DNA of 64,000 nucleotides from Candidatus Woesearchaeota archaeon (GCA_047602905.1 JBLKOP010000005.1:1241-65240), one strand, 5' to 3'. Shown: positions 1,126-29,809, counted from the stretch's first letter. Notes: generated from the letters alone by a model not told the origin. Made by a program: numbers and translations.

Positions 1126-1135
1126 CACTGGACAT
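1126..1135 (+). promoter_or_regulatory. CACTGGACAT box (mini-ORB-like), copy 1, upstream of the helicase gene
   Basis: Exact 10-mer shared with 4684-4693 and 49623-49632. It is followed 13 nt later by the A/T box TTTTTAAAG (1148-1156), which ends 25 nt before the ATG at 1181. Confidence 0.55.
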
Positions 1136-1180
1136 CTTACCGACGCGTTTTTAAAGTGGCTTTTTTCTATTAGTACTTGT

Positions 1181-3157
1181 ATGGATGACTTATCGTATGT
1201 GCACGTGTTAGAGGCGGTTAATGACTTGCCGTTTTCTGTGGGAAAAAACACTCTTATTGATGTTCTTGTTGGTTCAACAAACAAAAAAATGGTTTCTAAT
1301 GACGCGTACCTAGAGTGTGTTGCGTATAATAGTTTGTTTGGTGTTGATAAGGCTCGTATTGATTCCTTGATTCGTGAGCTCATAAGGGCGGGTTGTTTGC
1401 AGTACGTAAGTAGTATGCAAAACCCTCGTTGGAAGACTCTTTCTCTTACTAGCAAGGGAGTTTCTGAGCTTGCTAACCCTTCTCTTATTACTTCTTCTCC
1501 TGTAAGCACTCATTCTAGTTCTTCACCTACTAAGCACGAGTTGTTGCTTATGCAGGAGCACGAGGAGTTCTTGTCCTCATTTACTCAGCAGCAACGCCAC
1601 GCAATTGTTTCTTGTGGTAAGCGCGTGTTGTGCGTTGCTGGTGCTGGGAGTGGCAAAACTACTGTTCTTACGAATCGTATTCGTTTCTTAACACAAAAGC
1701 GCGGCGTTCTTGCTAAAAACGTGCTTGCTATCACGTTTACTCGTAAAGCTCGTGAAGAGATGCAAACGCGCCTTGGTGGCGTTCACGCACAAATTGTTAC
1801 GTTTAACGGTTTTTGTGAGCGGGTTTTACGCGCTCATGGCCTGAATAAACCTCTTGTTTCCTACGGCCAGAAGATTATGTTGTTTCGGGAGGCTTGTAAG
1901 CGTAAGGGTTTAGAAATCCTTGCTCTTATTCATGAGTACTACACTTCTTCTCAGCGTAATGGGAAAAGCTCTGATGAGCTTGCTAGGCGTTTGATGAGTG
2001 ATGTATTTAGTATTCTTGATCACTACGCTAACGAGGATGAAACGGTTGCTTCTTCTGGTCGTAGCGTTCTTGCAAGTACGTTGCTTGCTTTAGCTAAAGA
2101 AATTATTGTTTTAATGGATGAGCGTGGAGTAATGGATTATTCTGGTCAGGTACAGGCTGTTCTTGCGTTGTTTCGGTCTCGTCCCGAGGTCGTTCCTTCT
2201 TTTGATCACGTCCTTGTTGATGAGTATCAGGACGTAAACGTCTCTCAGGTTCGCTTGTTAGAGTTGCTTGCTCCTAGTAATTTGTTTGTTGTGGGGGATC
2301 CTCGTCAAAGCATTTTTGGTTGGCGAGGTAGTCATGTTGAGTTCATTAATGATTTCGAGGGTGATTGTGTTGTTCAGTTAACAAAGAATTTTCGTAGCTG
2401 TAAAGAAGTGGTTTCTGTTATGAACAAGTGTATTTCTTCTATGAAGCTTCCTCCTCTTAAGCCTGGTTTGTCGCTTTCTGGTGCTGTTCAGGTGATGAGT
2501 TACTCAAGTGATTCTGAGGAGTTGCGGGGCGTTGCTGGTTTGCTTAAGCATGTTAATGGTTCCTCGGTGTTTGTTCTTGCTCGAACAAACAAGCAGCTTG
2601 AGGAGTTATCGGTGGTTTTAGATAGAGAGGGTGTTTCGTATAGTATTCGTCAAGAAACTTCTTCTGAGGATGTTTCTAGTGGTATTGTTCTCTCTACCGT
2701 TCATGCGATTAAGGGTTTAGAAGCGGAGACGGTTGTTGTTATTGGTTGTACTTCTCGGTATTTTCCTTGTCGCGTTTCTGATCACCCGGTTGTTGAGTTA
2801 ATTACTGGTGTTTCTTTGCGTGAGGAGGAGGAGCTTCGTTTGTTGTATGTTGCTTTGTCTCGTGCACAAAAATCTCTTATCGTCACGTATAGTGGTTCGT
2901 TAACGTATTTGCTTGACGGAGTGTTTTCTTCTTCTGCTTCTCGTGATGACGAGGCGTATGCTTCTCTTAAGAAGTGGCGTAGTGAAGTTGCTGCTCAGAA
3001 GTCTCTTCCTGCGTATTGCGTGTTCTCTGATAAGACGCTTCGTGAACTCGCTACTCGTAAACCTTCTTCTCTTGCTGAGCTTGAAGCAATTCATGGTATT
3101 GGCCCTAGTAAGCGTGTTGAGTTTGGAGAAGCGGTTTTAGAAGTGCTTGGTTCTTAG
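1181..3157 (+). CDS. UvrD/PcrA-family SF1 helicase with N-terminal winged-helix-like module and C-terminal HRDC domain
   Basis: Walker A AGAGSGKTT, motif II LVDEYQDVN, motif III VVGDPRQSIFGWRG, motif V STVHAIKGLEAETV, motif VI LLYVALSRAQKSL. The C-terminal 65 aa (LKKWRSEVAAQKSLPAYCVFSDKTLRELATRKPSSLAELEAIHGIGPSKRVEFG) matches the RecQ HRDC pattern. Confidence 0.85.
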   Translation: MDDLSYVHVLEAVNDLPFSVGKNTLIDVLVGSTNKKMVSNDAYLECVAYNSLFGVDKARIDSLIRELIRAGCLQYVSSMQNPRWKTLSLTSKGVSELANPSLITSSPVSTHSSSSPTKHELLLMQEHEEFLSSFTQQQRHAIVSCGKRVLCVAGAGSGKTTVLTNRIRFLTQKRGVLAKNVLAITFTRKAREEMQTRLGGVHAQIVTFNGFCERVLRAHGLNKPLVSYGQKIMLFREACKRKGLEILALIHEYYTSSQRNGKSSDELARRLMSDVFSILDHYANEDETVASSGRSVLASTLLALAKEIIVLMDERGVMDYSGQVQAVLALFRSRPEVVPSFDHVLVDEYQDVNVSQVRLLELLAPSNLFVVGDPRQSIFGWRGSHVEFINDFEGDCVVQLTKNFRSCKEVVSVMNKCISSMKLPPLKPGLSLSGAVQVMSYSSDSEELRGVAGLLKHVNGSSVFVLARTNKQLEELSVVLDREGVSYSIRQETSSEDVSSGIVLSTVHAIKGLEAETVVVIGCTSRYFPCRVSDHPVVELITGVSLREEEELRLLYVALSRAQKSLIVTYSGSLTYLLDGVFSSSASRDDEAYASLKKWRSEVAAQKSLPAYCVFSDKTLRELATRKPSSLAELEAIHGIGPSKRVEFGEAVLEVLGS

Positions 3158-3573
3158 AGGTCTTTTTCGTTGAAGATGTACATCACGTTTTCTGGGTTGT
3201 CGGCTGCTTCGTGAAGAACGATGTTTCCTGTGTTTTCGTTAAAGAAAAAATATGCTTTTTCGTATGGTATTTTCTTGTCTTCTATGAGTTGTTTGTATGC
3301 TCCGTTCATGAAACTTTTTGTTATTCCTATTGGCTCTCCTGTTTCTTCTATCATTGCAACGACTGTGTCTATTCCTTGCGCATTTAGTTGTTGGTATAAG
3401 TCTATGGTTGTTCCTCCTAGTGCATATACTGGGCTGAGAGGGTTTATTGGTTTTACTAAGAACGTTTCTTCTCCTACGTTAAATGTTTTTTCTTTTGGTG
3501 TTGCTTTAGTTATTGCTTCGTCAATAACTCCTGTTTCTGCGGGTATCATGAGTTGTTGGTATGATAGCATCAT
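3154..3573 (-). CDS. hypothetical protein (139 aa)
   Basis: Clean ORF filling the gap, converging on the helicase stop with a 4-nt overlap. No motif recognised. Confidence 0.45.
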   Translation of the reverse strand: MMLSYQQLMIPAETGVIDEAITKATPKEKTFNVGEETFLVKPINPLSPVYALGGTTIDLYQQLNAQGIDTVVAMIEETGEPIGITKSFMNGAYKQLIEDKKIPYEKAYFFFNENTGNIVLHEAADNPENVMYIFNEKDL

Positions 3574-3611
3574 ATAATGTGGAGTTTATAAAGATTATTA
3601 TTCTGTACTGG

Positions 3612-4028
3612 CTACGTTTTTTTGTTTTGTAACGAAGAAAAAAACGCTTCTAGACTTTTTGATTTGCTTGCTTGTATTGTGTTGATTTCTTCTTTATGAA
3701 CCCACAGGTGCTTAGTGATGTTTTCGTTTTCTTCTATTTGTGAGGTAGTTATTTCTTTGTTTGTGGTTGTGCAAAGAAAGGTGTTACAGATAACTTGCTG
3801 GTTGTTTTTGTCAGAAAACCACCAGATTCCTACGTGCTCTTTGATGTCTATACTCAGTCCTGTCTCTTCTTTTACCTCTCTAATAAGTGCTTCTTGCGGA
3901 CTCTCTCCTGAACGAATTTTTCCTCCAGGAAGACTAATGTATGTTATTCCGTCATATTCTTGTAACAGAACAAGAAACTTGTCTTTGTACTTAATAAGCG
4001 CCTTTGCTGCTGCTAGTGATGGCTTCAT
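3612..4028 (-). CDS. NUDIX hydrolase
   Basis: Nudix box GGKIRSGESPQEALIREVKEETGL (GX5EX7REUXEEXGU). Confidence 0.85.
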   Translation of the reverse strand: MKPSLAAAKALIKYKDKFLVLLQEYDGITYISLPGGKIRSGESPQEALIREVKEETGLSIDIKEHVGIWWFSDKNNQQVICNTFLCTTTNKEITTSQIEENENITKHLWVHKEEINTIQASKSKSLEAFFSSLQNKKT

Positions 4029-4701
4029 AAAACTCTTTTCTCCTCAAGAAACTTTTTGATATGTCCATACATTTTCTGATAGCCTTCTTTGTTTGGGTGT
4101 AGCCCGTCTGCTAGCAGTGAAGAAAACTCTTCTTCTTTAGCTGCGCAAATAAATCAAGAAAACTTGTTTGCTCTTGTACACTTATTTCTTTAAGTACTTC
4201 GTTGTATTCTTGTATTCGCTGGTTACTAAACCACGTGCCCTCATATGGGTTGGTGAGTTTTTCATCAACAGGGGTTAGTCCAAGTACGACTATTTGTTCT
4301 GCATACTTTTTTGCTATACGTATAATTTCTTGAATGTTTTTTCTAAATGTTTCTGGTCTTGTCTGAGGAATGTTTTTGCTTCCAAGAAGCTTTGCATCAT
4401 TGATACCGATAGTGATGATAATCGTGTATGTGTCTTCTTCTCGTAGTACTTTTGTTCGTGCTTGTGCTTCTATTTCTATTCTCTTAAGAAGTCCTGTGCT
4501 TGTCTCCCCAGGTATTGCCAAGGTGTAGACTGCGTTATACTCGTCAAGGCTCTCAAAATACTCTCTAAGACGTCCACTCCAGCCTCTTTGCGAGTTGTTT
4601 CCTCTCCCAAAGGCTATGCTGTCTCCGAAAACAAGAATTCCTTGCATATAGTGTGTATTTGTGGCTTTCTTTTTAATGATTCTCACTGGACATTTAGGCA
4701 A
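4025..4701 (-). pseudogene. SGNH/GDSL hydrolase interrupted by a -1 frameshift (or assembly indel)
   Basis: Block I ILVFGDSIAFG lies in the tracked ORF 4111-4701. The catalytic block V DGLHPNKEGYQKM is encoded just downstream in the -1 frame (4106-4068), and that frame ends at a TGA (4027-4025) overlapping the NUDIX ATG as ATGA. The likely true start is the ATG at 4647 (MQGILVFGDS). Confidence 0.75.
4684..4693 (+). promoter_or_regulatory. CACTGGACAT box (mini-ORB-like), copy 2, between divergent GDSL and orc1 promoters
   Basis: Exact 10-mer. TTATAAAA (4705-4712) follows and ends 25 nt before the orc1 ATG at 4737. On the other strand CATTAAAAAG lies between the box and the GDSL ATG at 4647. 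Confidence 0.55.
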
Positions 4702-4736
4702 TCATTATAAAAACAGGTTTTGTGCTTAGTGGTATT

Positions 4737-5804
4737 ATGTCGTTATTCAAAGACGTACTGGATAAGAGTAAGAGCTTGTTTGTTGATGAGCACGCACTTA
4801 ATTACGAGTTCTTACCTGGCGTTCTTCCTCACCGAGAAAGTGAGCAAGGTCATTTGGCTACGTGTATTAAGCCGTTGTTCATGGATCGTGCCGGGCGTAA
4901 CTTGCTTATTCATGGTCCTCCTGGTGTGGGAAAAACGGCTGCTTGTCGTTATGTGTTGCGTGATTTGGAGGAGAATACTGATCGTATCCAAACGATTTTT
5001 GTGAGTTGCTGGAAGCATAACACGACCTTTAAGGTTCTTGCTGAGGTGTGTAACCAGATTGGTTACGCGTTTACGCATAACAAGAAAACTGATGAGCTAA
5101 TGCGTATTATCACTCATAACCTCAATAAGTCACGTACAGTGTTTGTTTTTGATGAGGTAGATAAGGCTGAGGACACGGATTTCTTGTATTTCTTACTTGA
5201 AGAAATTGATCGCAAAGTAGTTTTTGCTATTACGAATTTTAAGGAGTGGCTTATTGATTTAGATGAGCGTGTGAAGAGTCGCTTGACTGCTGAGCTTCTT
5301 GAGTTTAAGGCGTACTCACAAGCAGAAGTTACTGATATTCTGAGAAAACGCTTAGCGTACGCGTTTCGTGACGGCGTTTGGAGTGATGAGCCTCTTGGCT
5401 TAGTGGCTTCTCGTACTGTAGAAGCGGGTGATGTGCGTGTTGGTTTGTACTTGCTTAAAGAGGCTGGTATGCTTGCTGAAGAGAAGTTTAAGGACGCAGT
5501 ACTTGTTGAGCACGTAGAGGCTGCTATTAAGAAGCTTGACGAATTCACTATTAAGAATACGAAGGACTTGGATGCTGATGCTCAGCTTGTTCTTTCGTTG
5601 TGTCGTAAGCACGCGGGTAAAAAAATTGGAGAAATTTTTGAGCTCTACGAGTCCAGTGGCGGTAAGGGTGTGTATAAGACGTTTCAAAGAAAGGTTCGGT
5701 ACTTAGCTGAGAATAAGTTCATTACTCAAGAGCGAGTAACTGGTGGAAGTTCTGGCTCGACTACGATTATTCATCCTGCTAATAAGAGCTTAACGGAGTT
5801 TTAG
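4737..5804 (+). CDS. orc1: Orc1/Cdc6 replication initiator (AAA+ plus winged helix)
   Basis: Walker A HGPPGVGKTA, Walker B VFVFDEVD, typical Orc1/Cdc6 N-terminal LNYEFLP..LPHRESE and a C-terminal winged-helix region. The tracked ORF starts at GTG 4722. ATG 4737 is preferred from the TATA spacing. Confidence 0.9.
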   Translation: MSLFKDVLDKSKSLFVDEHALNYEFLPGVLPHRESEQGHLATCIKPLFMDRAGRNLLIHGPPGVGKTAACRYVLRDLEENTDRIQTIFVSCWKHNTTFKVLAEVCNQIGYAFTHNKKTDELMRIITHNLNKSRTVFVFDEVDKAEDTDFLYFLLEEIDRKVVFAITNFKEWLIDLDERVKSRLTAELLEFKAYSQAEVTDILRKRLAYAFRDGVWSDEPLGLVASRTVEAGDVRVGLYLLKEAGMLAEEKFKDAVLVEHVEAAIKKLDEFTIKNTKDLDADAQLVLSLCRKHAGKKIGEIFELYESSGGKGVYKTFQRKVRYLAENKFITQERVTGGSSGSTTIIHPANKSLTEF

Positions 5805-7189
5805 TGGTTCGTCTTCTTCGAGCTTCCGATGTTGCTTTGTGCGTGAAGAGTCCTTTTCTTTTGTGGGCTGATGCGTTTGTTGGTGAGGAGCATAAGGATT
5901 CCTTAACTGTTTTTCAAGAGGCGTTGTTTGAGAAAGGTCGCGTTCATGAAGAAGAAGTTCTTACGCAAAACTATCCTGGTGCTCAAGAGGTTGCTTACGC
6001 TTCTGTTGAGGATGCTTTCTTGCAGACAAAGCAGTTCATGCAAGAGGGTGTTGACGTGCTCTCTCAAGGAGTTCTTCTTTCTGAAGAGTTGGGTTTTGAG
6101 GGCCGTCCGGACGTTCTTGAGAGAGTTCCTGGAGAGTCTGTGTTTGGGGAGTATTATTATGTTGTTAAGGAGATTAAGTACGCAAAGAACCTTAAGCAGC
6201 ACCATATCCTGCAAGCAGCGTTTTATAACAGATTATTAGGTGTTATTCAGGGCGTTACTCCTAAAGAATTCTTCTTAGTTAATAACGAGCATGAAGAGTT
6301 TTCTTTTCTTTACGCGGACTATGAGGCTTTGCTTGATGAGATGGTTGTTCTTGCAAGAAGTGTTCTTTGTGAAGACTTCGTTCCTCTTCCTGTTTTTGGC
6401 GAGGATTGGCCGTGGACTTCTTACTCGCAAGAACTTGCAAGAGAAAACAATGATTTATCGTTGCTGTATCGCTTAGGGCGAACGGTTCGTGACGCGCTAA
6501 ACAAGCAAGGTATATTTACTCTTCAAGACTTTGTTGCTGCTGATAAACAAACTGTTCTTAGCATAAAAGGAGTTGGTGCTTCCTCATACAAGAAGTGGTT
6601 ACTGCAAGCACAAGCATACCTAGAAGACCGAGTAGTTGTTGCAAAAAAACCTACTCTTCCTGCTTCTGAGAACGTGTTCTTTTTTGATATCGAGGGTGAT
6701 ACGGAGATTGGTGTTGATTACTTATACGGGCTTCTTGGTGAAGAGGGTTTTGTGTATTTTTTCGCAGACACTCCTGAAGATGAGGAGGCTATGTGGAGGA
6801 GTTTTTGTTTGTTTATGAGTAATCAACCTGAAGACGTTGTTTTGTATCATTACACGAGTTATGAAAAAACGAGTGTTAAGCGTTTATACAAGAAATACGG
6901 TTGTGATGAGGGTGTGTACAAAAAAGTTGTTTCTTCTCTTACTGACGTATTTCCTATCGTTACTTCTTGCGTGTTTCTTCCTATTCCTGCGTACAGTATT
7001 AAGCCGTTAGCGAATTACTTAGGGTTTTCTTGGCGCGCAAGTGATGCTGGTGGAGCAAATAGTATTCAGTGGTATCAACAATACTTGTTAGGGGATTCTT
7101 CTATGAAGAACAAGATTTTGTTGTATAACGAGGATGACGTACAAGCAACAAAAGTAGTTACTCACTGGTTACAAACACTTAAAAGGTAG
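5804..7189 (+). CDS. TM0106-type putative nuclease: N-terminal RecB/Cas4-like PD-(D/E)XK domain plus C-terminal RNase-H-fold (YprB-like) exonuclease domain
   Basis: GRPDVLE...YVVKEIKY (D...ExK) and QAAFYNRLL (QxxxY), followed by FFFDIEGD, YHYTSYEK and YNEDDVQAT exonuclease-type acidic motifs. The GTG start overlaps the orc1 TAG by 1 nt. Confidence 0.7.
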   Translation: MVRLLRASDVALCVKSPFLLWADAFVGEEHKDSLTVFQEALFEKGRVHEEEVLTQNYPGAQEVAYASVEDAFLQTKQFMQEGVDVLSQGVLLSEELGFEGRPDVLERVPGESVFGEYYYVVKEIKYAKNLKQHHILQAAFYNRLLGVIQGVTPKEFFLVNNEHEEFSFLYADYEALLDEMVVLARSVLCEDFVPLPVFGEDWPWTSYSQELARENNDLSLLYRLGRTVRDALNKQGIFTLQDFVAADKQTVLSIKGVGASSYKKWLLQAQAYLEDRVVVAKKPTLPASENVFFFDIEGDTEIGVDYLYGLLGEEGFVYFFADTPEDEEAMWRSFCLFMSNQPEDVVLYHYTSYEKTSVKRLYKKYGCDEGVYKKVVSSLTDVFPIVTSCVFLPIPAYSIKPLANYLGFSWRASDAGGANSIQWYQQYLLGDSSMKNKILLYNEDDVQATKVVTHWLQTLKR

Positions 7190-11001: not shown

Positions 11002-11499
11002 GTGATAGAGTACCTAGAAATAGACGAAATACAGCAACTCAAAGCACTCACGAAAGAACAACGAGACGCCCTACTCATAGCTACGCAGTACGAGACAGGA
11101 TGCACCGTTTCTGAACTCATTAATATCCGTCGAGAAGACCTGCGAGAACGCCACATACACGTAGAAGACCGTCTCTGTAGAGTATCAACTACGCTTCTTG
11201 AACAATTATCTCTCTACGTAAAAACCCATGAATCCCCCTACGTGTTTCCTAGCCGACAACAAGACCGCTTAACACAAAAACGAGTACAACAAATTATTCG
11301 TAAACGACTACGAGCACTCAACAAAGACCTAGACAAAACCAGTCCTCACCTTCTGCGCTACTCCCACATAGTCCACGCAGTACAACAAAACATCCCTCTT
11401 CAAGCAATCATGCAACAAACAGGCCTAAAAGAGATGCGCCTATCACAAATAATCAGCCAGATACAAACAAGCACTGGCTATGAGGAGATGTTTACATGA
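11002..11499 (+). CDS. small tyrosine-recombinase-fold protein (catalytic-domain-like, degenerate active site)
   Basis: ETGCTVSELINIRREDL aligns to box I (A/E)TG(x)R(x)SEL, with the catalytic Arg replaced by Thr. HLLRYSHIVHAV aligns to HxLRH box II. No clear C-terminal catalytic Tyr context. Only 165 aa, GTG start, and its TGA overlaps the giant-gene ATG. Confidence 0.5.
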   Translation: MIEYLEIDEIQQLKALTKEQRDALLIATQYETGCTVSELINIRREDLRERHIHVEDRLCRVSTTLLEQLSLYVKTHESPYVFPSRQQDRLTQKRVQQIIRKRLRALNKDLDKTSPHLLRYSHIVHAVQQNIPLQAIMQQTGLKEMRLSQIISQIQTSTGYEEMFT

Positions 11500-14400
11500 A
11501 ACGACTCCTTCTACTCCTCTTAGTATTTACTCTTCTCCCAGCAGCTCTTGGAGTATCAGGAGCAGAAGTATTCATCCAAGCACCAACAACCGCTCTTCCA
11601 GGAGAAACAGTAGCTGTAAGTATAGAAGCACAAATACAAGGAGTGCGAGTAATTAGTTTTCCTCTTGAAGTAACGCTCATATACCCTGACCAAACAACAA
11701 CAACTCTTCCTATACAGCCTGACGGGCAAGGGTTGCTTACAACCACTGCGTACACGCCTTTACAAGGAGTGTATGAGTTACGAGCACAAGCAAGCTTTGC
11801 AGACACACAAGTACAAGCAACGCATGAGATACGCGTACAACCACCACCTCTACAAGCAAATATCACACGAAGTAACGACACGTTTTTCTTTAACGCAACA
11901 GAAGAATACACTTTCAACATATACCCTCTTCTTCTTCAAGCAGGACCAATAACCCAGCAAGAACCCGTCTGTACTGTTACGTGCACCTCTTGTGAGCTTG
12001 TATGCGCAGTCAACAACGCGTTTATAACAGCGCAAGGACAGTACCGATACACACAAATCCTTGCCCCAACAAGCACACAAATCCTTACCACAGGACAAAG
12101 CATAGACACACAAGAACTGTTCTTGCTACGAGAAGAAGCACTCATAGCACTCCCTAGCAAGACCTCGTTTGTCCAAGACCAAACCCTCATCACCCCAGAA
12201 GGAGTACTAGAGATACGCGTTCTTGACGAAGAAGAACTCTCTACACTGCCTGAAGCGTACAGCATCCTAGACGGGCAGTGGTATGTGCGAAGCACACAAC
12301 CACTAACTGCTCTTAACCACACAATACTTGCTGCTTGGAGCTTACAAGGAGAGCTTCTTGAGCACACAACAAACACGTTGCAAACAAGCACTGGTTTTGA
12401 AGCACGCATCCAAAGAACAGGCAGCGCGCAACTACCTGTAGTTACTCATACAGAGCACGGAGTACTCGTAAATAACCTCACCCAACTCTTACGCCTACCA
12501 GCAACAGCCACTCCTATAAGTCTTTCTCAAGAACCAGAACTTCTTGTTTCTCGTGACGAGCAAGGACACCTTGTCTACTACGCACAAGAAGACCACGTAC
12601 TCATACCAGCAAATCTTACAAACAATACCGTGCTGTACGCACGCACGTTTGAGCCAATTAAGCTACCAGTAACTAATGCTTCAAAAACAACAATTCTTAA
12701 TGAAGAATTAGAAGTTGTTCTCGCTCAAGAAGGCACTCTAACTCAATGGACTCCTCGCGTACAACCAGGAAGGTACTTTGTTCTTGCTCAACAAGAACAA
12801 CCCGCTGTACAGGTAGTGGATGTGCTTCCAGCAGGAGAACTCATTACTTCACCAAACAACAATACCTACGCCGCGCAGCCAAACACGCAACTCGTTATTA
12901 AGCGAGAAGTCCGCAACACAGACACGCAACCAAGAACCATTAACGTACAACTCACCGGGGATTCTCGAGCAGTTCTGTACGCAAACAACAAGCAACTTAC
13001 CGACACGAACCTAAATGGAGTTCTTGACACAGGAATTCTTCGTCCAGGAGAAGCAATTACTCTCTCAGCACACGTGTTCATCGCTGCACAGCAACAAGAC
13101 CAAACACTCAAGTGGACTTTCTCAACGCCACAAGCAAGCATTACTCGCTCAGATGAGATACGCATAGCCTCGGAGAGCTCATTCATACAAGTGGATGACG
13201 TGGAAGTAGCGCAAATAACTGCTTCGCAAGCAAGTATTGAGGTAGTTATTAACAACTATGACGTGCAAGAGCGTGTTGAGACGATACGACTAACCTACCA
13301 AACACGAGAAGGAGAGGACGCTGAGCAGTTTAGTGTTGCTTTACCTGCTGGTAGCAGCACGCACACCTTCACAACTCCTCCTAACACGTACCAAGTACGT
13401 GCAGAGCTTCTCGTAACAGACCAAAACCCTAGTAACGATTACCGCTTACTTCGCTTTAATGAAGAAAGCGGCTTGCTTGTTCACGTTAACGAATACCAGA
13501 ACCGCGCTCACGAAGCATTCACTGTTAAAGTACAAGCACCTCTAGGAGCGTACCAAGCATTCATACCCGCTAGTAACGGATCGTTACTGCAAGTCCCTAC
13601 AGCCACTCTTTCTCAGCAAGCAAGAACACAAGACCTCCTAGTGCAGCTTCCTCTTGAAAAAAACACTGATGTACAACTCGTACTCATACCAGGAGAAGAG
13701 CGCACGTTTAATCCGTACCTCATCCTTGATAATCGTGACGCAACGACAAAAGGAAGCTGGTTTAGTGCTAGTCAAGTACCAGGGTTTTATGGTCCAGACT
13801 ACCTAAACGACTTAAATGAGCGTAAAGGAGACAAAGAAGTAGTGTACTCTCCTGTAAGCACTGCTCGTTACGAAGTAGAGATACATCATCCAGGTGATAG
13901 TAGCTTTGCGAGTAACACACGAGTACTTCTTGGAGAAGACACCGTTCTTGTTAACCAAAAAGTTCCTTCTTCTTGGCGCTACCTTGGCCGCTACGAACTA
14001 GGAGTAGACAACCCTATTATCATAACCAACGCAGCAAGTAATGGTGTAGTGGTTGCTGACGCGTTTAGGCTTGTGCGCGTTGATCAATACGCAACAATAG
14101 CTCAAGAAAGTATTGTAACAACTGCTCGTAGAGGAATCATTTTTGATAGTCGAGGACGAGAAGTAGCTGCTCAAGTAAGTCTGCGAGAAGACGGTAGAGA
14201 CGTGCGTGCAGGGCTTCTTCCTCGCCAAGCACAAGCAAATAATCGCAATTACGAAATACTCTTTGAGTTCGAGGATGAAGCAGTAGATAACCTGCGCGTT
14301 CATAACGCAAATCCTTCAGCGATGGGTCTTGGTCTTGAGCGAGTTCCTGTTGCTAGAGCGCAACAATTCACTGCTAGAAGCGTCGTTGATAGTTTCGCAA

Positions 14401-17400
14401 TTGACCCGCAGTTTGAGAGTGACTATTCCTTTACAAGAACAGCAACTGGTCGTGAACTGCTCAAATGTACTGATTACGACTTCACAAACCAAGAGTGTCT
14501 AGGAAGTTTTGAGCACGTAATGTTCTTAACGCCAGGAGAAAAATACACCGCTACTCTTGATCCGCTAGACCCGCTTTTTGTTGAAGTAAACGATTTAACA
14601 ATCCCTCCGGTAAGCGCTGTTTGTAGCGATGATGATCCTGCGAACTGGGATCCTTCTGTGTGTCAAGGAACCTACACTAACAACCCAACTTGTGGTTCTA
14701 GTGGTGCTCGTATTCTTTGTGATGACGGAGTTGTTGAGTCACTCTCAGGTGGAAGACCAGACGTTTTAGGTGTTGATGCTCGCTACGCTGACGTAACTGT
14801 TGATCCTTCAGAGCAATGCGATAACATCTTGAGTGTTTCTCTTGAGTACCGTTGGAGCAGCCCTACTGGTAACGTAAATAATCGGCGAGTAGAAATAAGT
14901 ACTGAAGATAACCCTACGTGGACAAACCCTACTGGTTGCTCAACAAATTTCGGGCTTCAATCCTGTGACATAACAAGCTATCAGTCTTGGTCGTGCGAGG
15001 ATTTCTTTGGAGAAAACACGCAAACAAGAGCTCGCGCTTATGGATGGAGAAGCACAGGTCCAGGAAGTCACCCTACCACCGTTAACGTTGATTACCTTGT
15101 TTTCGTTGTTGATTACGAGTTTGAAGTACAGCCTTTCACCTCTGATTTCTCCTCCTATAGACAAGGAGCGTTTGCTACGTTTACTGGTGCTAATGTTTGG
15201 GGAGCAAACGAGGATGTGCGCATAAATGTTACGCGTGAAGGATCACTTATTAATCAGCTAGACGTACTTACTGACGCAGAAGGAGAGTTTAGTGTACAGT
15301 ACGAGATTGATAGCTACGCAAACACTGGTTCTTGGAGAGCGGTTGTTTGGCAACTCTCAAATAATAGTATCGTTTACGACCGTAACTTTACTGTTACTCT
15401 AAGAAACCCCTCTGTTGCTCCTGCAAGAACAGGAGGGTATTATAATCGTTCCGAAACAGCTACGTTTATTGGTTCTCAGTGGGCAAACAACGCAACAGTT
15501 CTTGTTACAGCAACTGATCCAGAAAGTAACGAGTTTGTTCTTGACGAAATAAACACCACCACTTCTTCTACTGGACAAATCAGTTATAACTGGTCTGTTC
15601 CTGCTGACCTTAGCTTACTTACTGGTCCTTACACGTTTACGTTTGTTGAAGAAGACAATTCTTCTTTTACTCGACAAACACAAGCACAGATAGTTATTCT
15701 TCCTACTTCTGCTACTCGTTGGGACTCCGTTGACTTGCTTAGCGAAATCTATGCTCTTGACGGAACAGAAGCGGGTGTTACGTACACTGGAAACACTGAT
15801 GGGCGGTTTCTTAACTTAACGTTTCCTGAAACGTTTCCTGAAGACATAGAACTCAACCGTTTTGACTTCGTCTTCTTTTATCGTGAAAGCTCAGGAGCTA
15901 CAGGCCATCACATTCAGTGGTGGGATGGTGCTTCTTGGAGTACTATTTGTACTCCTCCAACAAGCACTTCTCAAACAAATTATACGTGCAGCTTGCTTGG
16001 AGAAGTAGCTAGTGATCCTTCTTTAGCAAACAACGTACAAATTCGTCTTACTGATAACGACGCAACAAGTGGAGGAGCAGGAACTGTTCACACGTACTAC
16101 GTTGACATAGCGTTTTTAGATGTTAACTTCACGTTTCCTCGACCACTAGTTGATTTGCTTTCTCCTGCGAACAACTCTTGGTTTAACTCTACTCAGCACG
16201 AACTCTTTTTTAACGCTTCTAATGAGATGTTTGATATTAGTGAGTGTCGTCTCTATGTTAACGAAGCTCTTGAGTACACAAACGATTCGTTTACTAACCC
16301 AGGAACTGATAGCTATACGCACACCTTCTCTGAAGGAGTGAATACGTGGCGCGCTGAGTGTACAGATGATTCTGCAAGACAACTCGTAGGTGAGTCTGAA
16401 ACAAGAGATATCATCATTGACTTAACGCCTCCCTCAACAACTATTAGCACTCCCACGAATAATTCTTGGTTTAACACTAGCACTCCTAGTATTAATTTCA
16501 CGCTCACTGATAACTTAGCTAACCCAGTTAATTGGAGCGTGTACGTAAATAACTCCCTTGATAACTCAGGTGTAGCTACCAACAACACCGCTTTTACTCA
16601 TACACTTAGTTCTCTTGCTGATGGGTACTACGAAGTTGTTGTTGAGGCTTGGGATCCTGCGTTTAACTACGCAGTAAATGAGTCAATTAACTTGTACGTG
16701 GATACTACTGCTCCCGTTGTTACCTTAAACGACCCTGTTGATACGTTTAATACTTCTTCTACGAGCGTGGAGTTTTCTTGGACGCCAACAGATAACCTCG
16801 CACCAACCCTAAGTTGTGATTTGTTTGTTGATGACGTCTCACAAGGAACGTTTGCAACCCAAAACGGTGTTCAGAACCAAACAACGATTCCTGGTTTTAG
16901 TGACGGAGTCTATAACTGGAGTGTTCTTTGCACAGACATAGCAGGTAACAGCGCTCTTAGTGAAGTTCGCGAATTCACAGTAGACACCACTCCTCCTGTA
17001 GTGCTCTTAGAAGCTCCTCTTAACGAGACGGTCTTTGAGGATACAAGAAACATCCAGCTAGACTACAACGTAACAGACAACTTACTTCCTGTTACTGAGT
17101 GCCGCCTATACATAGATGATGAACTTAACCAAACAAACACTACGATAACGCAGTCAGTTACGCAAAGCTTCTTCTTAACAAACCTTGACCTTGGCGTGTA
17201 CGCGTGGAATGTTGAGTGCGTAGACTTAGTAGGTAACGCAGATAATAGTTCTCAGCAAGAGTTCGAAATCAACCTTACTATGTTTAGTACCTCTCCAGCT
17301 AATGGTTTTGTTGTTGATAGAGATGGCGGAGGAGCTGCTCCTGAATCAATAACGTTTGTAGCTAACGCGAGTGATGAAGAAGCAGGTACCCTTGTTTCTT

Positions 17401-20400
17401 TCTATGCTAGCTTGCTTGAACCAGTCGTTGCTGGCCAAGAAAACCTTCTTTTAGGAACGAACACAACTACTAGTAGCGGGGTTGCTGAGTTCACGTTCAC
17501 ACCAGATAATTCTTACTTTGCAGGAAATTATTCTTGGTTTGCTGCTGCTAATCGCTACTACAACGACACCTCTAATGACTTCATTATTTTAGGAACGCCA
17601 ACTATCTCGTATCAAGACGTGCTTTTTGATCCTAACAACGAGTACAACACCAGCCAGCTTGTTCGCCTAAACGCGACAGTAACGAGTAGTCCAGAATCCG
17701 CTTCTCAACTACAAACCTTGTATGGGTTGTTTGTTAACGCAACACTCACGCAACCAGATAGCACGCAGCACTACGTACCCCTTACCGGAGCAGGCAACCT
17801 CTCAGGAACCTACGCTCTTGCTAGCGACGCACAAATTGGTTTGTGGAGTGCTTTACTAAATACCTCGGCTAGTTGGATGTACCCAAACACTACTTCTCTT
17901 CTCTCAAGAACGTTTACTGTCAAGGGGTTTGCGCACACAATAAGTCCTCCTAACGGAACAGTTGTTGATCGCGACGCAGCAGGTATGGATCCAGAAACTC
18001 TTTCTTTAGTAGTGCAGATTCCTGGAGCGACTGCTGGAGAAACCATTAATTTCACCGCAGACCTCACAGACCCTGCTTTCTCAGGAGAGCAAGGCCTTCT
18101 TCTTGGCACTAACACCACAAACGCTACTGGTCACGCAACGCTTAGCTTCACTCCAACAAGTAGTTTTTACGCGGGTAACTACACGTGGTACGCGGTTAGT
18201 AACGTAAGTTATGTAGGAAACACATCCACTCTTCTTATTAAAGGAGGAGCTCAGCTTGCGCGAGCAAACGTTTCTGAAGAGCCTGCTAGTGAGTACAACC
18301 AGTCAGATACTGTGCAGCTACGCTTTAATATTACGAGCGTAAAAGAAACTCAAGAAGAGCTAGGAATAAATTATTCTTTAGTAACTAACGCTACTCTTCA
18401 ACCAAACACGTCTAGTACTCCTACGTATATCCCAACGTTATCCTTTGATGGTTCTAGCTGGGTGGGAAGCCAAGCTATCGGCCTTACAGACCCTGTTGGT
18501 GTGTGGAGAGTAGTTGCTAATACGAGTGGATTATTTACGTACCAGAACCAAAGTGTTGAGTACTTCTTTACTGTTTTTGGACTAACAAACCTCACAGTAG
18601 ATACTTTTGGTGCTCGCGTGTATGAGCCAGTTACCTTCACAGCGAACTATTCAGACACACTTAACCAACCAATTAATTACTCTCAAACTCTGTGTGAGAT
18701 TCGCTTTGACATCCTTGGAGGATACACCTCGTATGAGAATATGAGTTATGATTCTTCTTCTGGCCTCTTCTGGTTTAGTAGACGCTTTAATGAGACGTAC
18801 ACCGACGCGGAGTATAACATTGCGTGTAACGACCCTCTCTACGAGTTTCAAAACGTTACTGACACATTTACTATTAACAGAACTTTCGCTGATGTACTTA
18901 CTGTTCCTGGCCAAGTAGTTGATAGAGACGCAGCTGGTATTGACTCAGAAACGCTCTTACTTGAAGCAAGTATTGTTGAAGCTCCAGAAGGAGTAAGTAT
19001 AGAGTTTTACACAAACCTTACTGATCCTGTTCTTGGACAAACAGAGGTGTTCTTAGGAGCTAACACTACTGATGCTTCTGGAGTTGCGGTGTATTTGTGG
19101 AACCCTGACGGTACTATTCGTGCAGGAAACCACACGCTCTACGCGAACGCTACTTACGCGGATACAAGAAACGTTTCTGACGCACAAGTATTTGCTGCTC
19201 TTCAATCCGTGTTCACAAACCCTGTAAGTAATCCTGATGCGAACTACACCCAGAACCAAACAGTAACTTTGCACGCTAACGCAACAACAGTGGGTGTGGA
19301 GACTTCTGATCAGCTAAACACGAGCTATGCTCTTAGCTACACAGCATACTTGACAAGCGTGAACGGTCAGGACAGTTCAGCACTTGCGTTTATTAATCCT
19401 CTCTGGCAAGCAAGCTACACTCTTCTTGACCTTGCTGGTGTTGGTGTGTGGAACGTAAGTATAAACGCTTCAGCAAATTATCACTACCCTGATTCAAGTA
19501 CCAAAAACTTTGACGTCTTTGGGTACATGAACGTTACTCATTCATCAATAACTCCTACTGATCACTTCGTGTATGGTTCAGCAGCGCAGACTTGTGTTGT
19601 TCAGGATCAGCACACAGCAGTGCCTGTTGAGGATGCGCAAGTCTTTTTCTACCGAAACGCTACGTTGCTTGGAAGTAACACGACAAACAGCACTGGTCAT
19701 GCTCAGTTTACTTTCCAAACAAATTCTAGCGGCGTCTTTGATGTGTTGTGTGAAGTTGAGGACCAGCTAGGAATCTATTATTTCGCTGGGCAAGCACCTA
19801 ACAGCACTGATTCCTTAACGGTTCTTCCTTTCCCTATCACGCCGATAAGTCCTGCTAATGACACGCTTGTTGATCGGGATGAGACCAACGTTTCTGTGCC
19901 TAACACTCTTGAGCTTGTTGTTGAGGTTCCTAGTTACGTTCCTGACGGCGTATCTATTAATTTCTATAGTAACCTCACAGACCCTCTTAGTGAATCAGCT
20001 GTCTTGCTTGGAAGTAACACGACTAGTTCAGGAACTGCTCGCCTAAACTACAACCCAGCAACTGCTTCCTATGCAGGGCTTCACGAGTGGTACGCGACAA
20101 ACCCTGACGCTACTGTGAATGGAACACGAACGTATGAGAGTATTATGAGTTCAGAAATCGTCTTTACAAACACAACACAAAACCCTAACCTAAACTATAC
20201 TCAGAACGAATCAGTAACTCTGCAAGCAAACCTTACCAGTCTTGGTCCTGAGACGAGAACAGAATTAGCTACGAATTACTCTTCATTACTTAACTTCACC
20301 CTTACTAATCAGAATGGACAAACCATCAGTGTTGCTTTTTACTTTGATCCTCTCTGGCAATCCTCATACACTCTTCTTGACCTTGCTGGTGTTGGTGTGT

Positions 20401-23400
20401 GGAATGTGACTGCAAGTAGCGTTGGTGATTATCAGTTTGACGCAGTTTCTTCTCTAAGAAACTTTACTGTTTATGGTTACATGAACCTCACACAAGCAGT
20501 TCTTGATGCCTCAAGTACTCACGTATACGGCTTGACTACACAAACCTGTACTGTGCAAGACCAGCACACAAATGTCGTTGTTGAGGATGCGCAAGTCTTT
20601 TTCTACCGAAACGCTACTCTTTTAGGTTCTAACACGACAAACGTTTCTGGACAAGCAAGCTTTATTTTCCAAACAAACAACACAGGCGTTTACGATATTT
20701 CTTGTGAAGTAGAGGACCAGCTAGGAATCTATTACTACGCAGGTGACGCTCCTACCGCTACAAACACGCTTACCATAACTCCTTTCCCAATAACACCTAT
20801 AAGTCCCTTAAACGACACCCTTGTTGATCGGGATGAAACTAACGTTTCTGTGCCTAATACTATTGAGTTAGTTGTTCAAGTTCCTAGTTACGTTCCTGAC
20901 GCAGTAACGATTAATTTTAGTAGCTCACTTATTAATCCACTCACCCAAGCACCCACTCTTCTTGGTGCTAACACGACGAGTTCAGGTACTGCTCGCCTAA
21001 ACTACAACCCACAGTCTACTTCTTACGCTGGTTTGTACGTGTGGAACGCTTCCTCAACTAACGGGTTTAGTAACGGTTCACGAACGTATCAATCAATAGG
21101 AACAACAAACACTTCTTTCTTTGATGAAACCCTCTTTCCAGGATTAGTGTATGAACAAAACGATTCAGTAACTCTGCAAGCAAACCTTACGAGTCTTGGT
21201 CCTGAGACGAGAACAGAATTAGCTACGAATTACTCCTCTCTACTCAATTTCACCCTTAGTAGCATAAACGGGGTTAATACGAGCGTAGCAACGTACAACA
21301 ACCCTTTCTGGCAATCCTCCTACTCTCTTCTTGACCTTGCTGGTGTTGGTGTGTGGAACGTAACAGCAACTGCTCAAACAAACTACTTCTTTAACTCTCT
21401 TAGTGAGCAAAGAAACTTTACTGTCTATGGGTTTATGAACCTCTCACAAACGTCTCCAAGCAACCCGCAAGCCTACGAGTTTGTTCCTCACACACAAACC
21501 TGTACTGTACAAGACCAGCACACAGCAGTACCTGTTATGGACGCACAAGTATTTTTTTATCGAAACGCTACGTTCTTAGGAAGTAACACAACAAACAGTT
21601 CTGGACAAGCAAGCGTTACGTTTGCAACAAACACGAGCGGAACTTATAACTTGTTGTGTGAAGTACAAGACCAGCTAGGAATCTACTACTACGCAGGAGA
21701 CGAACCATCCCAAACAACTACGCTTACTGTCGAGCCGTTCTTAGTAACACCAACTAATCCTATAAACGACACTTTAGTTGATAGAGACGGTTTCTTAGTA
21801 ACGCCAAACACCATTACGCTTAACGTGAGTGTCGTTGAAGAAATCCCTGCGGGAATAACGATTTATTTCTACGCAAACCTCACCAACCCATCCATAGCAG
21901 GCCAAGAAGAGCTCCTGCTAGGAACTAACACCACAACAAGTAATAACTGGGCTGCGCTAACGTACAACCCTAACAGCACTACGTATCTTGGAGAATACGT
22001 TTGGTGGGCTCAAGGAGGAGCGAGAGGAGCAAACGGTACACGAACCTTTACGCAACTAGGCTCTATGAACGTCACGTTTGCAAACAGCACGATAAACCCA
22101 GACGCTGAGTACGACAAACCAATCAACGTCACTATAGACGCTCTTTTGCAGAGTTACGGCCCTGAAACGAACACGCAATTATCTTCTTTGTACGCAGCAG
22201 CCACGAACAACACGTTCGTCATCCCTAACGGAACTAACCAAACAATCTCTCTTATGTACAACACCGTTAATTGGAGTGGCGAGTACGAGATACAAACGCC
22301 TGATACGAGAGGGTGGTGGTTTGCGCAACTAAACGCAACAGCAAACTACTTCGCTCTCGTGGACGCAGCAAGCAGAAGCTTCTTTGTAAATAACTTCCCA
22401 CCAACGCACACAACACCAATTCTTAACGCGAGTGACCACCCACAAAACTACACGACAGCAAACCTCACGGTTCATCCACAAAACGTCTTTGACGCAGAAG
22501 GAGACTTTGTCACGAACATGACTGATTGGAGAATAGCTAATCAGAGCGTCGCCGTACTCAACCTTCCTTTCCTGAGCAAAACAAATAGCACAGCAGCAGG
22601 TGCTGTTCGTGACTACACCACTTATGAGCACAACGCAACACTAGACTCAAGTGGAGTAAACCCTACGCCTACATACATAGATTCGTGTATCGTTGGTGGG
22701 TGTTACTTCTTTGATAACAACGAGTACATAGACACAACACTAACTCTTAACCCTGCAAGTACGAGCTTTACAATTAGTCTTTGGGCTCGCGTAGAAAGCC
22801 TTCCAAGCACGCTAGGAAGCAGCGTTCCTATCGTTCAGCAAGAAGACGGTACAGGAGTGGGAAGAACACTTGTAGGCCTAAGTAACAACGATGATGGTTG
22901 GTATAGCTTCTATGGAGGCGTGTTTCAGGATAGCGGAGTAGTACCTGCACTAAGTCAGTGGTATCACGTAGTGTACACGTACGATTTACCTTCAGAAACC
23001 CTTACGTTTTACATAGACGCAAATGATATTTACAGCGACCAAGCAGACCCAGAAGTAGCTGATGGTATCTGGACGCTAGCAAGACATAAGAGCGGAGCGA
23101 ATTACTATCACGGATACCTTGATCACGTACTCGTACTTGATAGAGCACTAAGTCAAGAACAAATCGCTCAGATACGCGAGGACGGACTAGCAGGAAAACC
23201 ACCAACGACCATCGTCTCAGAAGAAACAAATAAAGAAGAGGTGTGGAGCGCGTGCCTTACTCCTAATGACGGCCTTGATGACGCAGTTACTCTGTGCAGC
23301 AATGAAGTACGAATCAGAGGACTTCTAGAAGCAATCAACCCAGCTAATGACACAGTAGTTGATAGAGACGCTACAGGGCAAGGAAACGAGACTATCAACC

Positions 23401-27886: not shown

Positions 27887-28486
27887 ATGAGTCGTCTTGA
27901 AGAACAACTGCGTTTTCTTGAAGAAATTGATCAGTTCAAGAATGTTGAGCGAGTAATTCCGTTGCAAAACGGTCGTTTAGAAACGGATGCTGAGCACACA
28001 TGGCATTTAGCGATGTTTTTGCTTGTTTTTGATAAGGACTTACCTGTAAGTCTTGATCGGACAAAAATGTTTCGTCTTGCTTTGGTTCATGACTTAGCTG
28101 AGGTGTACGCGGGTGATCCGTTCGCGTTTGATACTGTGGGTCGAGTAGGTAAGGCTGATAAGGAGTTAGTTGCTGCGAAGAAACTGTTTTCTTTGCTTCC
28201 AAGCGATCTTTCTGAGGAGTTCTTGCAGTTGTTTCTTGAGTACGAGAATAAGTCTTCTGCTGAAGCTCGCGTAGTTAAGGCGTTTGATAAGTTGCAGCCG
28301 TTACTATCTCATTACTTAACACAAGGTCGTTTGTATCGTGATAAAGCGATTACTCAGGAGATTGTTGAGGAGTATAACAAGCCGCATTTCGGGGAGTTTC
28401 GTGTTCTTGATGAGCTTAATAAGAAACTTATCGCTCTCTTAGCGCAGAGTGGCTCGTTTAGCTCGCAGAAACAAACGACTTTATGA
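27887..28486 (+). CDS. HD-domain phosphohydrolase (YfbR/HDDC2-like 5'-nucleotidase)
   Basis: ETDAEHTWHLAMF and LVHDLAEVYAGD (H...HD...D). ATG 27887 is preferred over the tracked 27839, which overlaps the preceding ORF. Confidence 0.75.
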   Translation: MSRLEEQLRFLEEIDQFKNVERVIPLQNGRLETDAEHTWHLAMFLLVFDKDLPVSLDRTKMFRLALVHDLAEVYAGDPFAFDTVGRVGKADKELVAAKKLFSLLPSDLSEEFLQLFLEYENKSSAEARVVKAFDKLQPLLSHYLTQGRLYRDKAITQEIVEEYNKPHFGEFRVLDELNKKLIALLAQSGSFSSQKQTTL

Positions 28487-29112
28487 AACCGCTAATTCTT
28501 TTTGATTTTGATGGAACACTTGTTGATAGCACACAAGAAGTATTGTTTGTGGTTAATACGCTTCTAAAAAAGAGAGGTCTTAGTGAAGTTACTGCGCAAG
28601 AAGTAGCGACTACTCCTCTTGAAGCACTTGCTCGTAGTAGAGGAGTTGGTCGTTTTCGTGTGTTGTTATTCTTGCGCGAAGTGCAGCAGTTACTTATTAA
28701 GCGAAGCACTCCTGTTCCTGTTCACGAGCACATAAAGCAACTTCTTAACTCAGTTAGTGCGTACGTGGATGTGGGTATTGTTACTTCTAATTCTCTTGAG
28801 TACGTACACGCTGTTGTTAGCGAGGAGTTTCTTTCTCGTTTCGTGTGTGTCTTGCACGCAGGGTTGTTTACAAAAAACAAAGTTATTTCTCGTGTTCGTA
28901 AACAACGAGGGCTTTCTAAGAAGTACGTGTTGTACGTTGGTGATGAGTCTCGTGACGTGCACGCTGCGAGAAGAGCAGGTGTTGATTGCTTAGCGGTTTC
29001 TTGGGGGCTACAAGGAGTTGATAGTTTGCTTGCTTCTCGGCCTGCTATGCTTGCTCAAAGTACTGAGGAAGCAATTCATCTTCTTAAGGCGTGGATTGCT
29101 TCACGTGGTTAA
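28483..29112 (+). CDS. HAD-superfamily hydrolase (phosphoglycolate phosphatase-like)
   Basis: Motif I LILFDFDGTLVDS, motif IV YVGDESRDVHAARRAG. ATGA overlap with the HD gene. Confidence 0.75.
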   Translation: MKPLILFDFDGTLVDSTQEVLFVVNTLLKKRGLSEVTAQEVATTPLEALARSRGVGRFRVLLFLREVQQLLIKRSTPVPVHEHIKQLLNSVSAYVDVGIVTSNSLEYVHAVVSEEFLSRFVCVLHAGLFTKNKVISRVRKQRGLSKKYVLYVGDESRDVHAARRAGVDCLAVSWGLQGVDSLLASRPAMLAQSTEEAIHLLKAWIASRG

Positions 29113-29197
29113 GAACAAGTACATTGCGATACTTACTCCTAAAAAAAGCATTGCTCTTGCTACCCAAATGGCTATTTGAAAGTAGCGTACTTTGTCT

Positions 29198-29809
29198 TCA
29201 GCGTCCATGTTCTTTGATGTGTTTGAGTCGAGTAAACTCTTCTCGTTCTCTTTCAGCAAGTTCTTGTGCTATCGTTTTTTGTGTGCTTTCTAGCTCTGGT
29301 ATGTATATGTGCTCTAGCGCGTTTACTCGTCGCTTCGTTTTTCGTATCTCTTCAGCCAGTGCGTAAATGGTTTGTTCTATCTCCGCTAGTTTTACAAGTA
29401 AAGGAACTACTGTTTGGAATTGTTTTTGTGCTTGCATGACGTACTCGCTTATTCCTATAAGGCTCGCGTTGTGCTTGACTGCTTGTGTTTGTAACTCTAG
29501 TGCGTTTATGCGCACTCCCATCAAGTTCTTTTCTGTGTAGGTGGTAAGAAAGCTTTCTTGTGTGCTGTACGCTAAGCTTTTTACTCTGTTTACTCCGCTT
29601 ACTGCTTGTGCTACGTGCAGTTGTGTATAGGCTTCTTGGAGTTGTTGTGTTACGTCACTTGCGAGTCGTTTGTATTCTTTTACGTAGCTAAAGAAGTGTT
29701 GTATGAGTGCGTCGCGTTTTTTTGTGAGGAGCTGGTGTCCTGTTGTTGCAAGCTTCTTTTTTTTCTTTACCGCAAGTAGTTCCATGCGGTTACTTGGTGG
29801 TCGGTTCAT
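29198..29809 (-). CDS. atpD: A-type ATP synthase subunit D
   Basis: [29 protein letters not shown] matches the V/A-type D subunit N-terminus. Last gene of the operon. Confidence 0.85.

Follow-up and report, generated by a model that had tools for sequence, protein, structure and literature searches.

What function can be assigned to a ten-nucleotide sequence that recurs in a single orientation, and at nearly the same distance from the start codon, in front of three genes of a woesearchaeal genome? The sequence, CACTGGACAT, is found in a 64,000-nt stretch of DNA from Candidatus Woesearchaeota archaeon (GCA_047602905.1, JBLKOP010000005.1:1241-65240), referred to below as the window, at 1126-1135, 4684-4693 and 49623-49632, each time on the plus strand, upstream of a UvrD-like helicase gene, orc1/cdc6 and a LAGLIDADG endonuclease gene, respectively. 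The original prediction took it for a mini-ORB, a form of the archaeal origin recognition box (ORB) bound by Orc1/Cdc6, and proposed that Orc1 controls its own gene and a small regulon of DNA-metabolism genes. The analysis described here leads to another answer. The box is a genuine promoter-linked cis-element that keeps a fixed distance from the TATA box, and with a probability of about 0.55 its nine-nucleotide core, CACTGGACA(T/A), may be regarded as a clade-wide upstream regulatory box of Woesearchaeota, the putative site of a dedicated sequence-specific DNA-binding protein.

The three exact, co-oriented and intergenic copies stand as first described, and no further exact copy is present on either strand. 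Dinucleotide shuffles of the window contain on average 0.11 copies and none of 100 shuffles reaches three, in agreement with the earlier statement that the number expected by chance is far below one. When one mismatch was allowed, the sole additional match was a coding hit at 19691, which corresponds to the chance level, and a relaxed scan of the window (up to two mismatches together with a TATA box) gave only a weak additional match at 27461 that was judged to be due to chance. A mechanically called open reading frame (ORF) with a TTG start (49566-50345) overlaps the third copy, but its homologues begin at the ATG, so that all three boxes are intergenic relative to real genes. An inverted partial match, GTCCAGTGG, reported earlier inside orc1, does exist (5651-5659, minus strand), but it is confined to the window and is treated as chance, because the orc1 genes of the relatives (L002, L029-L033 and L057; L numbers denote the loci compared) do not have it.

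The layout of the three promoters is almost identical. At the first site the box is followed after 12 nt by the TATA-like sequence TTTTTAAA (1148-1155) and, after another 25 nt, by the ATG of the helicase gene at 1181. At the second site, which lies in an 89-nt divergent spacer, a gap of 10-11 nt separates the box from the orc1 TATA box ATTATAAAAA (4704-4713, read as (A)TTATAAAA(A)), and 23-24 nt remain to the ATG at 4737. The third box precedes by 9 nt a weak TATA-like sequence, AAAAGTATTT (49642-49651; the equivalent in L034 is GTAAAATACTTT), which is followed after 25 nt by the ATG of the endonuclease gene at 49677. The distances from the start of the box to the ATG are 55, 53 and 54 nt, as was originally calculated; the A/T-rich box is indeed present 9-12 nt after each copy, although it ends 24-25 nt, and not in every case 25 nt, before the ATG. 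As read from these positions, the geometry fits leaderless transcripts. The identities of the three genes proposed earlier are supported by Pfam. The alignment of the three contexts reveals similarity over the 10-mer only, and copies 1 and 2 are not part of an extended repeat; the heptamer GAGTAAT precedes copies 1 and 3.

For comparison, DNA around orc1 homologues was taken from GTDB genomes, JGI metagenomes and assemblies. The contigs L052-L056, which encode an identical Orc1, are 100% identical to the window and thus uninformative at the population level. The 9-mer CACTGGACA occupies the same position in the orc1 promoter of seven genomes (Orc1 74-100% identical). It was found in every relative with a 74-83% identical Orc1 and the upstream region on the contig (L002, L029, L030, L031, L032/33 and L057), 51-54 nt upstream of the ATG and 12-14 nt upstream of a TATAAA-type box; TATAAAA boxes equivalent to ATTATAAAAA occur in the orc1 promoters of all relatives. 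The helicase promoters of four genomes carry the 9-mer, at the same offset in the orthologues of L030, L031 and L057, with the TATA box of the relatives 12-15 nt past it, and that of L032/33 has a degenerate copy with two mismatches, TACTGGACT. The 9-mer is therefore invariant at 51-57 nt upstream of the ATG (orc1 in seven genomes, helicase in four), while the flanks around it are unalignable and the GC content of the genomes ranges from about 35 to 54%. Such a conserved box in a diverged spacer is a classical phylogenetic footprint. In L057 three genes within 3.2 kb, namely a small ORF, orc1 and the helicase gene, are each preceded by the box.

In total, 30 distinct CACTGGACA sites were counted in 357 kb of non-redundant Woesearchaeota DNA, against approximately 2.7 expected. 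A TATA box follows 28 or 29 of them at 8-24 nt, with the gap being 9-15 nt in nearly all sites, and only the one at L011:2484 looks coding. The shorter ACTGGAC, by comparison, occurs randomly in coding DNA.

Relatives with a 47-58% identical Orc1 have no box at orc1, where only a AGCAAAAACTATATAAAC-type promoter was found. In these distant relatives the box is located elsewhere, usually as an abutting 7-bp tandem, CACTGGACACTGGACAT, with the variants CACTGGTCACTGGACA and CCACTGTCCACTGGACA. Tandem heptad forms were found in L003-L026, L031, L014 and L050. In the distant relatives the tandem is located at 0.05-5 kb from orc1 and is followed after 11 nt by a conserved TGAA-ATATTTAAA promoter, which precedes a short hairpin-forming leader or RNA, several small ORFs and then a Sua5/YrdC gene. 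Two close relatives of the window, L031 and L057, have the box in front of the same small ORF. A module of about 60 nt is common to the promoters of the small RNA and of the L036 endonuclease in the distant clade; it consists of TTTTCNATATNGNAANNAA, the box, TGAA and TATTTAAA. The most widely conserved target of the box is not orc1 but the small-ORF/small-RNA cluster upstream of Sua5/YrdC. This changes the regulon that was originally proposed: orc1 and the helicase gene are served by the box, but a photolyase (25480), a DnaG-like primase (45707) and a ribonucleotide reductase (56434) encoded in the window have no box.

The leader or small RNA has the form GCAGGAAA-(variable hairpin)-CTTTTCACCCC-TTTCCTGC (L003:7606-7659, L010:8269-8316, L012:2179-2228 and equivalents); a T-run follows it in L003 and L015 only, the corresponding region being A/T-rich elsewhere. 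RNAalifold applied to a MAFFT alignment of this putative hairpin RNA gave only a 5-bp terminal stem without covariation. Rfam detected no family in L003, L008, L010 and L031 and, in the window, tRNA-Lys alone. The small ORFs (L003:7683-8259, L010:8341-8973, L051:12604-13052, L057:3111-3227, L031:8656-8769) encode a 49-aa zinc ribbon, a peptide of about 40 aa with MELSNEFIEDLFLQQIKELT and an acidic peptide of about 40 aa of the type DDEIxxxEEGFMxGYL, followed by a short Sua5/YrdC protein. The small ORFs after the box have no Pfam family and no homologue in the window. A possible link to viral contigs was rejected, since the IMG/VR scan for the tandem 16-mer gave nine matches in unrelated contexts, approximately the number expected by chance.

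The box resembles an archaeal upstream activating sequence (UAS) or operator in its fixed position and orientation relative to the TATA box and the start codon, in its conservation in orthologous promoters while the flanks diverge, and in its recurrence at several unlinked promoters (orc1, helicase, LAGLIDADG gene and small-ORF/Sua5 cluster). If so, it would lie about 5-8 bp upstream of the core promoter, composed of the TFB recognition element (BRE) and the TATA box, at about -45 to -55 from a leaderless start, and the putative factor might contact or recruit TFB/TBP. In archaea, sites located upstream of the BRE mediate activation and those covering the start mediate repression, as in the cases of Ptr2, TFB-RF1, SurR and TrmBL1. 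Positive control, probably resulting in co-expression of the targets, is suggested because archaeal activators that recruit TFB/TBP bind at this same place, directly before the BRE. In the sublineage of the window the regulon would include the orc1 operon, the neighbouring helicase gene and the tRNA-Lys-linked LAGLIDADG gene, and in relatives also the small-ORF cluster. The small-RNA/small-ORF/Sua5 cluster and the endonuclease may represent the older and most widespread targets, with the boxes at orc1 and helicase possibly recruited in the lineage having an Orc1 of at least 74% identity to that of the window.

In one genome only, L002, an inverted pair of boxes, CCACTGGACA-N28-TGTCCAGTGG (L002:5947-5995), brackets the orc1 TATA box, and the second copy covers the presumed start. 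This arrangement is like that of dual activator/repressor systems and suggests that the same putative factor can also repress.

Similar arrangements are known for the UAS of Ptr2 and for the sites of TFB-RF1, SurR and TrmBL1, which, like the box, adjoin the BRE at a fixed distance from TATA and serve a handful of promoters, although the sequence of the box is unrelated to any of them. The abutting 7-bp repeats of the relatives, CACTGGA CACTGGA CA, recall the heptad operators of ribbon-helix-helix proteins such as omega of pSM19035; omega, however, belongs to a bacterial plasmid system, the window contains single heptads only, and no ribbon-helix-helix gene is linked to the box. There is also a functional analogy with the eukaryotic G1/S boxes, the MluI cell-cycle box (MCB) and the E2F site upstream of ORC1 and CDC6, in that a short box would co-regulate an initiator and DNA-metabolism genes, but neither site nor factor is homologous and cell-cycle regulation here is speculation. 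We know of no characterised regulators in DPANN archaea. In literature searches the motif string returned only primers, and no description of the motif or of promoter motifs or origins of Woesearchaeota was found in the papers searched. The box is a previously undescribed member of a familiar kind, the promoter-proximal regulatory site, with an unusual set of targets and a partial likeness to the ORB core.

As to the protein that may bind it, the footprint of Orc1 is roughly 25 bp. A small dedicated transcription factor is somewhat more likely than Orc1, because the tandem CACTGGA-CACTGGA-CA suits dimers that read heptads and is too tight for two Orc1 monomers. Several points weigh against a dedicated regulator acting at this site. 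Because sampling was centred on the surroundings of orc1 and LAGLIDADG homologues, the list of the regulon is incomplete and the enrichment given above is not a genome-wide figure. Whether the putative factor activates or represses can only be surmised. The window has nothing but single heptads, to which a dimer that reads heptads would bind weakly, and no candidate regulator gene was found linked to the box; the TrmB-family gene of the window (43423-44136) is unlinked. Finally, the 7-mer shared with the ORB and the presence of a site on orc1's own promoter may argue for Orc1 as the binder.

This last point requires a comparison of the box with the ORB family. Curated consensus sequences of archaeal ORBs are CTTCCAGTGGAAACGAAAGGGGT (PMC4153887, Table 2), GTTCCAGTGGAAAC-AAA----GGGGG (PMC1868953) and, in Ori-Finder 2, TCCA[CG]T[TG]GAAA[TC][GA]AAGGGGT (PMC4164010). 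When the box sites were aligned to the 23-mer ORB consensus, they matched invariantly only at TCCAGTG, and the mini-ORB identity first assigned to the box does not hold beyond this 7-mer. The base before TCCAGTG is G, not T, in 39/39 sites, and the two preceding bases are always TG and not CT. The remainder of the ORB core, TTCCAGTGGAAA(C), is not conserved: its G/A/A/A/C positions agree at 14, 5, 7, 26 and 8 of 39 sites, and at 6, 4, 6, 5 and 6 of 13 sites in the sublineage of the window, where the base next to the 7-mer is also G (TCCAGTGG) in 6/13. GGAAAC and the G-string occur at background frequency, with the positions of the G-string (GGGGT), which in full ORBs comes about 4 nt after the core, matching in 1-6 of 39 sites. 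The arrangement differs as well, since ORBs form clusters or inverted pairs around an A/T-rich DNA unwinding element (DUE) in a long intergenic region, whereas the box is single or a 7-bp tandem, keeps a fixed register with TATA and is found also at promoters far from orc1. Membership in the ORB family fails on testable features, and what remains of the likeness is the central TCCAGTG and the occurrence next to orc1. By a rough, post hoc count, the probability of sharing a 7-mer with the ORB core by chance is about 0.006.

It is nevertheless possible, though on the present evidence doubtful, that Orc1/Cdc6 itself binds the box as an ORB-derived operator, autoregulating its own operon and co-regulating the helicase, the endonuclease and the small-ORF cluster. 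Orc1 stays a candidate binder because the shared 7-mer, which is central to all curated ORB consensus sequences (PMC4153887 Table 2, PMC1868953, PMC4164010), is unlikely by chance and because the box is located on orc1's own promoter, in seven genomes; in more distant relatives the tandem box is not farther than 5 kb from orc1, and in about 25 genomes the 6-10 kb around orc1 contain no canonical mini-ORB cluster that would compete for Orc1. By inspection, the residues (V)YK(T/S)FQRK of the winged-helix domain are conserved between the Orc1 of the window and the distant ones. A precedent exists in Sulfolobales, where Orc1-2 acts through a DNA damage-responsive element (DDRE), ANTTTC, on its own and other promoters (PMC9738581). 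The likeness consists of a short asymmetric box at the promoter of an orc1-family gene and at promoters of other DNA-transaction genes; the motif ANTTTC is, however, unrelated to the box, and Orc1-2 is a non-initiator paralogue (PMC9738581), whereas the gene of the window is Orc1-1-like and closest to the initiator-type Cdc6-1/ORC1 (2QBY_A). Its best solved relatives are Cdc6-1 of S. solfataricus (2QBY_A, E = 4e-29) and ORC1 of A. pernix (2V1U_A, E = 3e-27), and names of Candidatus Woesearchaeota and Nanoarchaeota occur among its 943 homologues, which assigns the window to a DPANN archaeon.

Against Orc1 stands, first of all, the finding of Matsunaga et al. that TTCC and GAA are the perfectly conserved submotifs of the ORB, both required for binding, and that a lone mini-ORB is unbound in vivo (PMC1904270), whereas the box has an invariant G in place of the T of TTCC and lacks the conserved GGAAAC and G-string. 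Judging by the complexes 2V1U and 2QBY, two copies spaced by 7 bp would not be able to hold an Orc1 monomer each. The absence of the box from orc1 in relatives with a 47-58% identical Orc1 also speaks against this protein, and the fixed TATA spacing points to a transcription function. The fuller proposal, in which the Orc1/Cdc6 of Woesearchaeota doubles as a promoter-bound transcription factor and a stripped ORB core, TGTCCAGTG, upstream of BRE/TATA controls its own operon, the RecQ-like helicase, the tRNA-Lys-linked endonuclease and the small-RNA/peptide cluster, is more tentative still and should be considered rather improbable. If true, it would mean that replication initiation is coupled to transcription in an archaeon with a reduced genome, and the tandem-box locus near orc1 could be the long-sought origin of DPANN archaea.

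Dispersed ORB elements were named as the alternative in the original prediction. On this explanation, which is very unlikely, the boxes would mark an origin or several of them, such as a minimal one situated between the helicase gene and orc1, or an oriC formed by the tandem box of the relatives and its A/T-rich neighbour. Such a reading can account for the ORB-core 7-mer, for the boxes near orc1 and for the A/T-rich, highly conserved block (TTTATATA...TTTTCAATATAG...) that flanks the tandem box in distant relatives. It also agrees with the absence of canonical ORB clusters elsewhere near orc1; no mini-ORB cluster (up to two mismatches) was found in about 30 non-redundant loci scanned. In the window, however, the copies do not cluster and form no inverted ORB pair around a DUE: they are single and co-oriented, 3.5 and 45 kb apart, the third one lying in the endonuclease cassette. 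The intergenic spacers with boxes are only 59 and 89 nt long in the window, and in L032/33 the orc1 ATG follows the helicase stop after just 64 nt, which leaves no space for a DUE; in the window, moreover, the spacers are filled by promoter elements. No reversal of the GC or AT skew, a measure that is unvalidated as an origin indicator in this clade, occurs at the three sites (1.1, 4.7 and 49.6 kb); in the relatives, including the region around the tandem box, the skews depend on the coding strand and point to no origin. Lastly, every copy is in a fixed register with TATA, which is not required of an origin.

The third copy raises the question of whether the LAGLIDADG protein is itself the binder. 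Its gene (49677-50345, plus strand; 222 aa, Pfam PF14528 and PF00961) encodes a double-motif homing endonuclease, with the aspartates of both motifs present in the translation (MLGDG, FDTDG), and the 3' end of the gene overlaps a tRNA-Lys(CTT) gene on the opposite strand (50307-50381, minus strand; predicted by ARAGORN and matching Rfam RF00005 with 70.1 bits). The 3'-terminal 21 nt of the tRNA (50307-50327) are repeated at 49572-49592 (20/20 exact in the search with 0 expected; 21 bp by inspection), and box 3 is thus enclosed in a 714-bp segment bounded by perfect 21-bp direct repeats. All homologues examined, L034/35 (81% identical), L036-38 (43%) and L039/40 (42%), have CACTGGACA and then a TATA box upstream, and in these three lineages, too, they adjoin tRNA-Lys(CTT), on either strand. 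In L034 (2950-3750) the tRNA is encoded on the opposite strand, and the repeat persists as a decayed copy; in L036 (3800-4790) it is on the same strand and its 5' 19-20 nt are duplicated; in L039 (3800-4760) the stop codon of the endonuclease gene is inside the 5' end of the tRNA. On these grounds the gene seems to encode a free-standing homing endonuclease that resides at the tRNA-Lys locus, the tRNA-Lys gene being probably its target. A homing-endonuclease cassette would in this case carry or use a host-type regulatory box.

The LAGLIDADG protein, either as a homing endonuclease or as a domesticated derivative, might bind the box, autoregulate its gene and have acquired host targets. Autorepression by I-TevI and the LAGLIDADG scaffold of WhiA are precedents. 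Such a role is consistent with the box in the promoter of every homologue and with the retention of the gene at the tRNA-Lys locus across lineages of 42-81% identity, which is more like vertical retention than selfish spread; in addition, one source names a homologue (P0139) a DNA-binding transcriptional regulator. However, monomeric double-motif enzymes typically read about 20 bp, for which a core of 9-10 bp is short, and both catalytic Asp positions are intact, suggesting an active nuclease. The protein is a most improbable binder of the box.

That the three copies merely recur by chance or are the remains of a longer mobile repeat can be practically dismissed, since the phylogenetic footprint, seen in orthologous promoters of seven genomes, removes both explanations, no shuffle yields three copies and the contexts do not align beyond the 10-mer, even though copy 3 lies in an insert with direct repeats and shares GAGTAAT with copy 1. 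The longer mobile repeat that, according to the original prediction, would have refuted it was not found, and an end of a miniature inverted-repeat transposable element or insertion sequence was rejected likewise, since the similarity is limited to the 10-mer and the only copy in an insert, the third, has tRNA-derived borders.

To our knowledge, gene regulation and origin recognition are experimentally uncharted in DPANN archaea, which cannot be grown alone. The box offers a concrete handle, being a site of 9 bp whose positions are defined and whose promoters form a short list (orc1, RecQ-like helicase, homing endonuclease and small-ORF cluster). Should Orc1 turn out to be the binder, an initiator would be seen to control transcription by way of an ORB-derived site; otherwise, the box would define the first regulon of a Woesearchaeota regulator linked to genes of DNA replication and repair.

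The genes adjoining the first two boxes have several features of their own. The helicase (1181-3157, plus strand; 658 aa) is an unusual, RecQ-like fusion of an N-terminal RQC domain, a UvrD/REP core and a C-terminal HRDC domain (Pfam PF09382, PF00580, PF13361 and PF00570), and its gene is syntenic with orc1 in L030-L033 and L057. The orc1/cdc6 gene (4737-5804, plus strand; 355 aa, Pfam Cdc6_lid and AAA_22) is followed by a gene for an RNase_H_2/HhH protein (5804-7189, plus strand; PF13482 and PF14520), which is found directly after orc1 in L029 and L030 as well and is probably co-transcribed with it, because its GTG start overlaps the orc1 stop. On the other side of the spacer 4648-4736 lies a divergent GDSL-lipase gene (4114-4647, minus strand), the TATA-like sequence of which, TCATTAAAAAG, is only 4 nt from the orc1 box; a protein bound to the box would therefore also overlap the BRE of the GDSL-lipase promoter.

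At the tRNA-Lys locus, a pseudo-tRNA or split tRNA at site 3 was considered and rejected, as only the 3' 21 nt are duplicated, a 5' half and T-stem are absent, and ARAGORN predicts one tRNA. The tRNA-Lys(CTT) genes of distant relatives (L036:4685-4781, L039:4655-4760) contain short introns at non-canonical positions, in the D-arm region in L036; ARAGORN calls one of these intron-bearing genes tRNA-Val and misses the other.

The endonuclease cassette belongs to a block of lower GC content (0.36-0.39) at about 43000-51000, together with the DnaG-like Toprim primase gene (45707-47455) and a gene for a 762-aa RNase_H_2-domain protein (47271-49559) that overlaps the primase ORF. The block is possibly of integrated or mosaic origin; another copy of the tRNA repeat was not found. 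The plus strand of the window is T-rich and G-rich regardless of the coding strand, with an AT skew of -0.2 to -0.48, especially at 28000-38000. The opposite skew is seen in an ORF of 4368 aa (11496-24602), which is preceded by a truncated Phage_integrase ORF (11002-11499).

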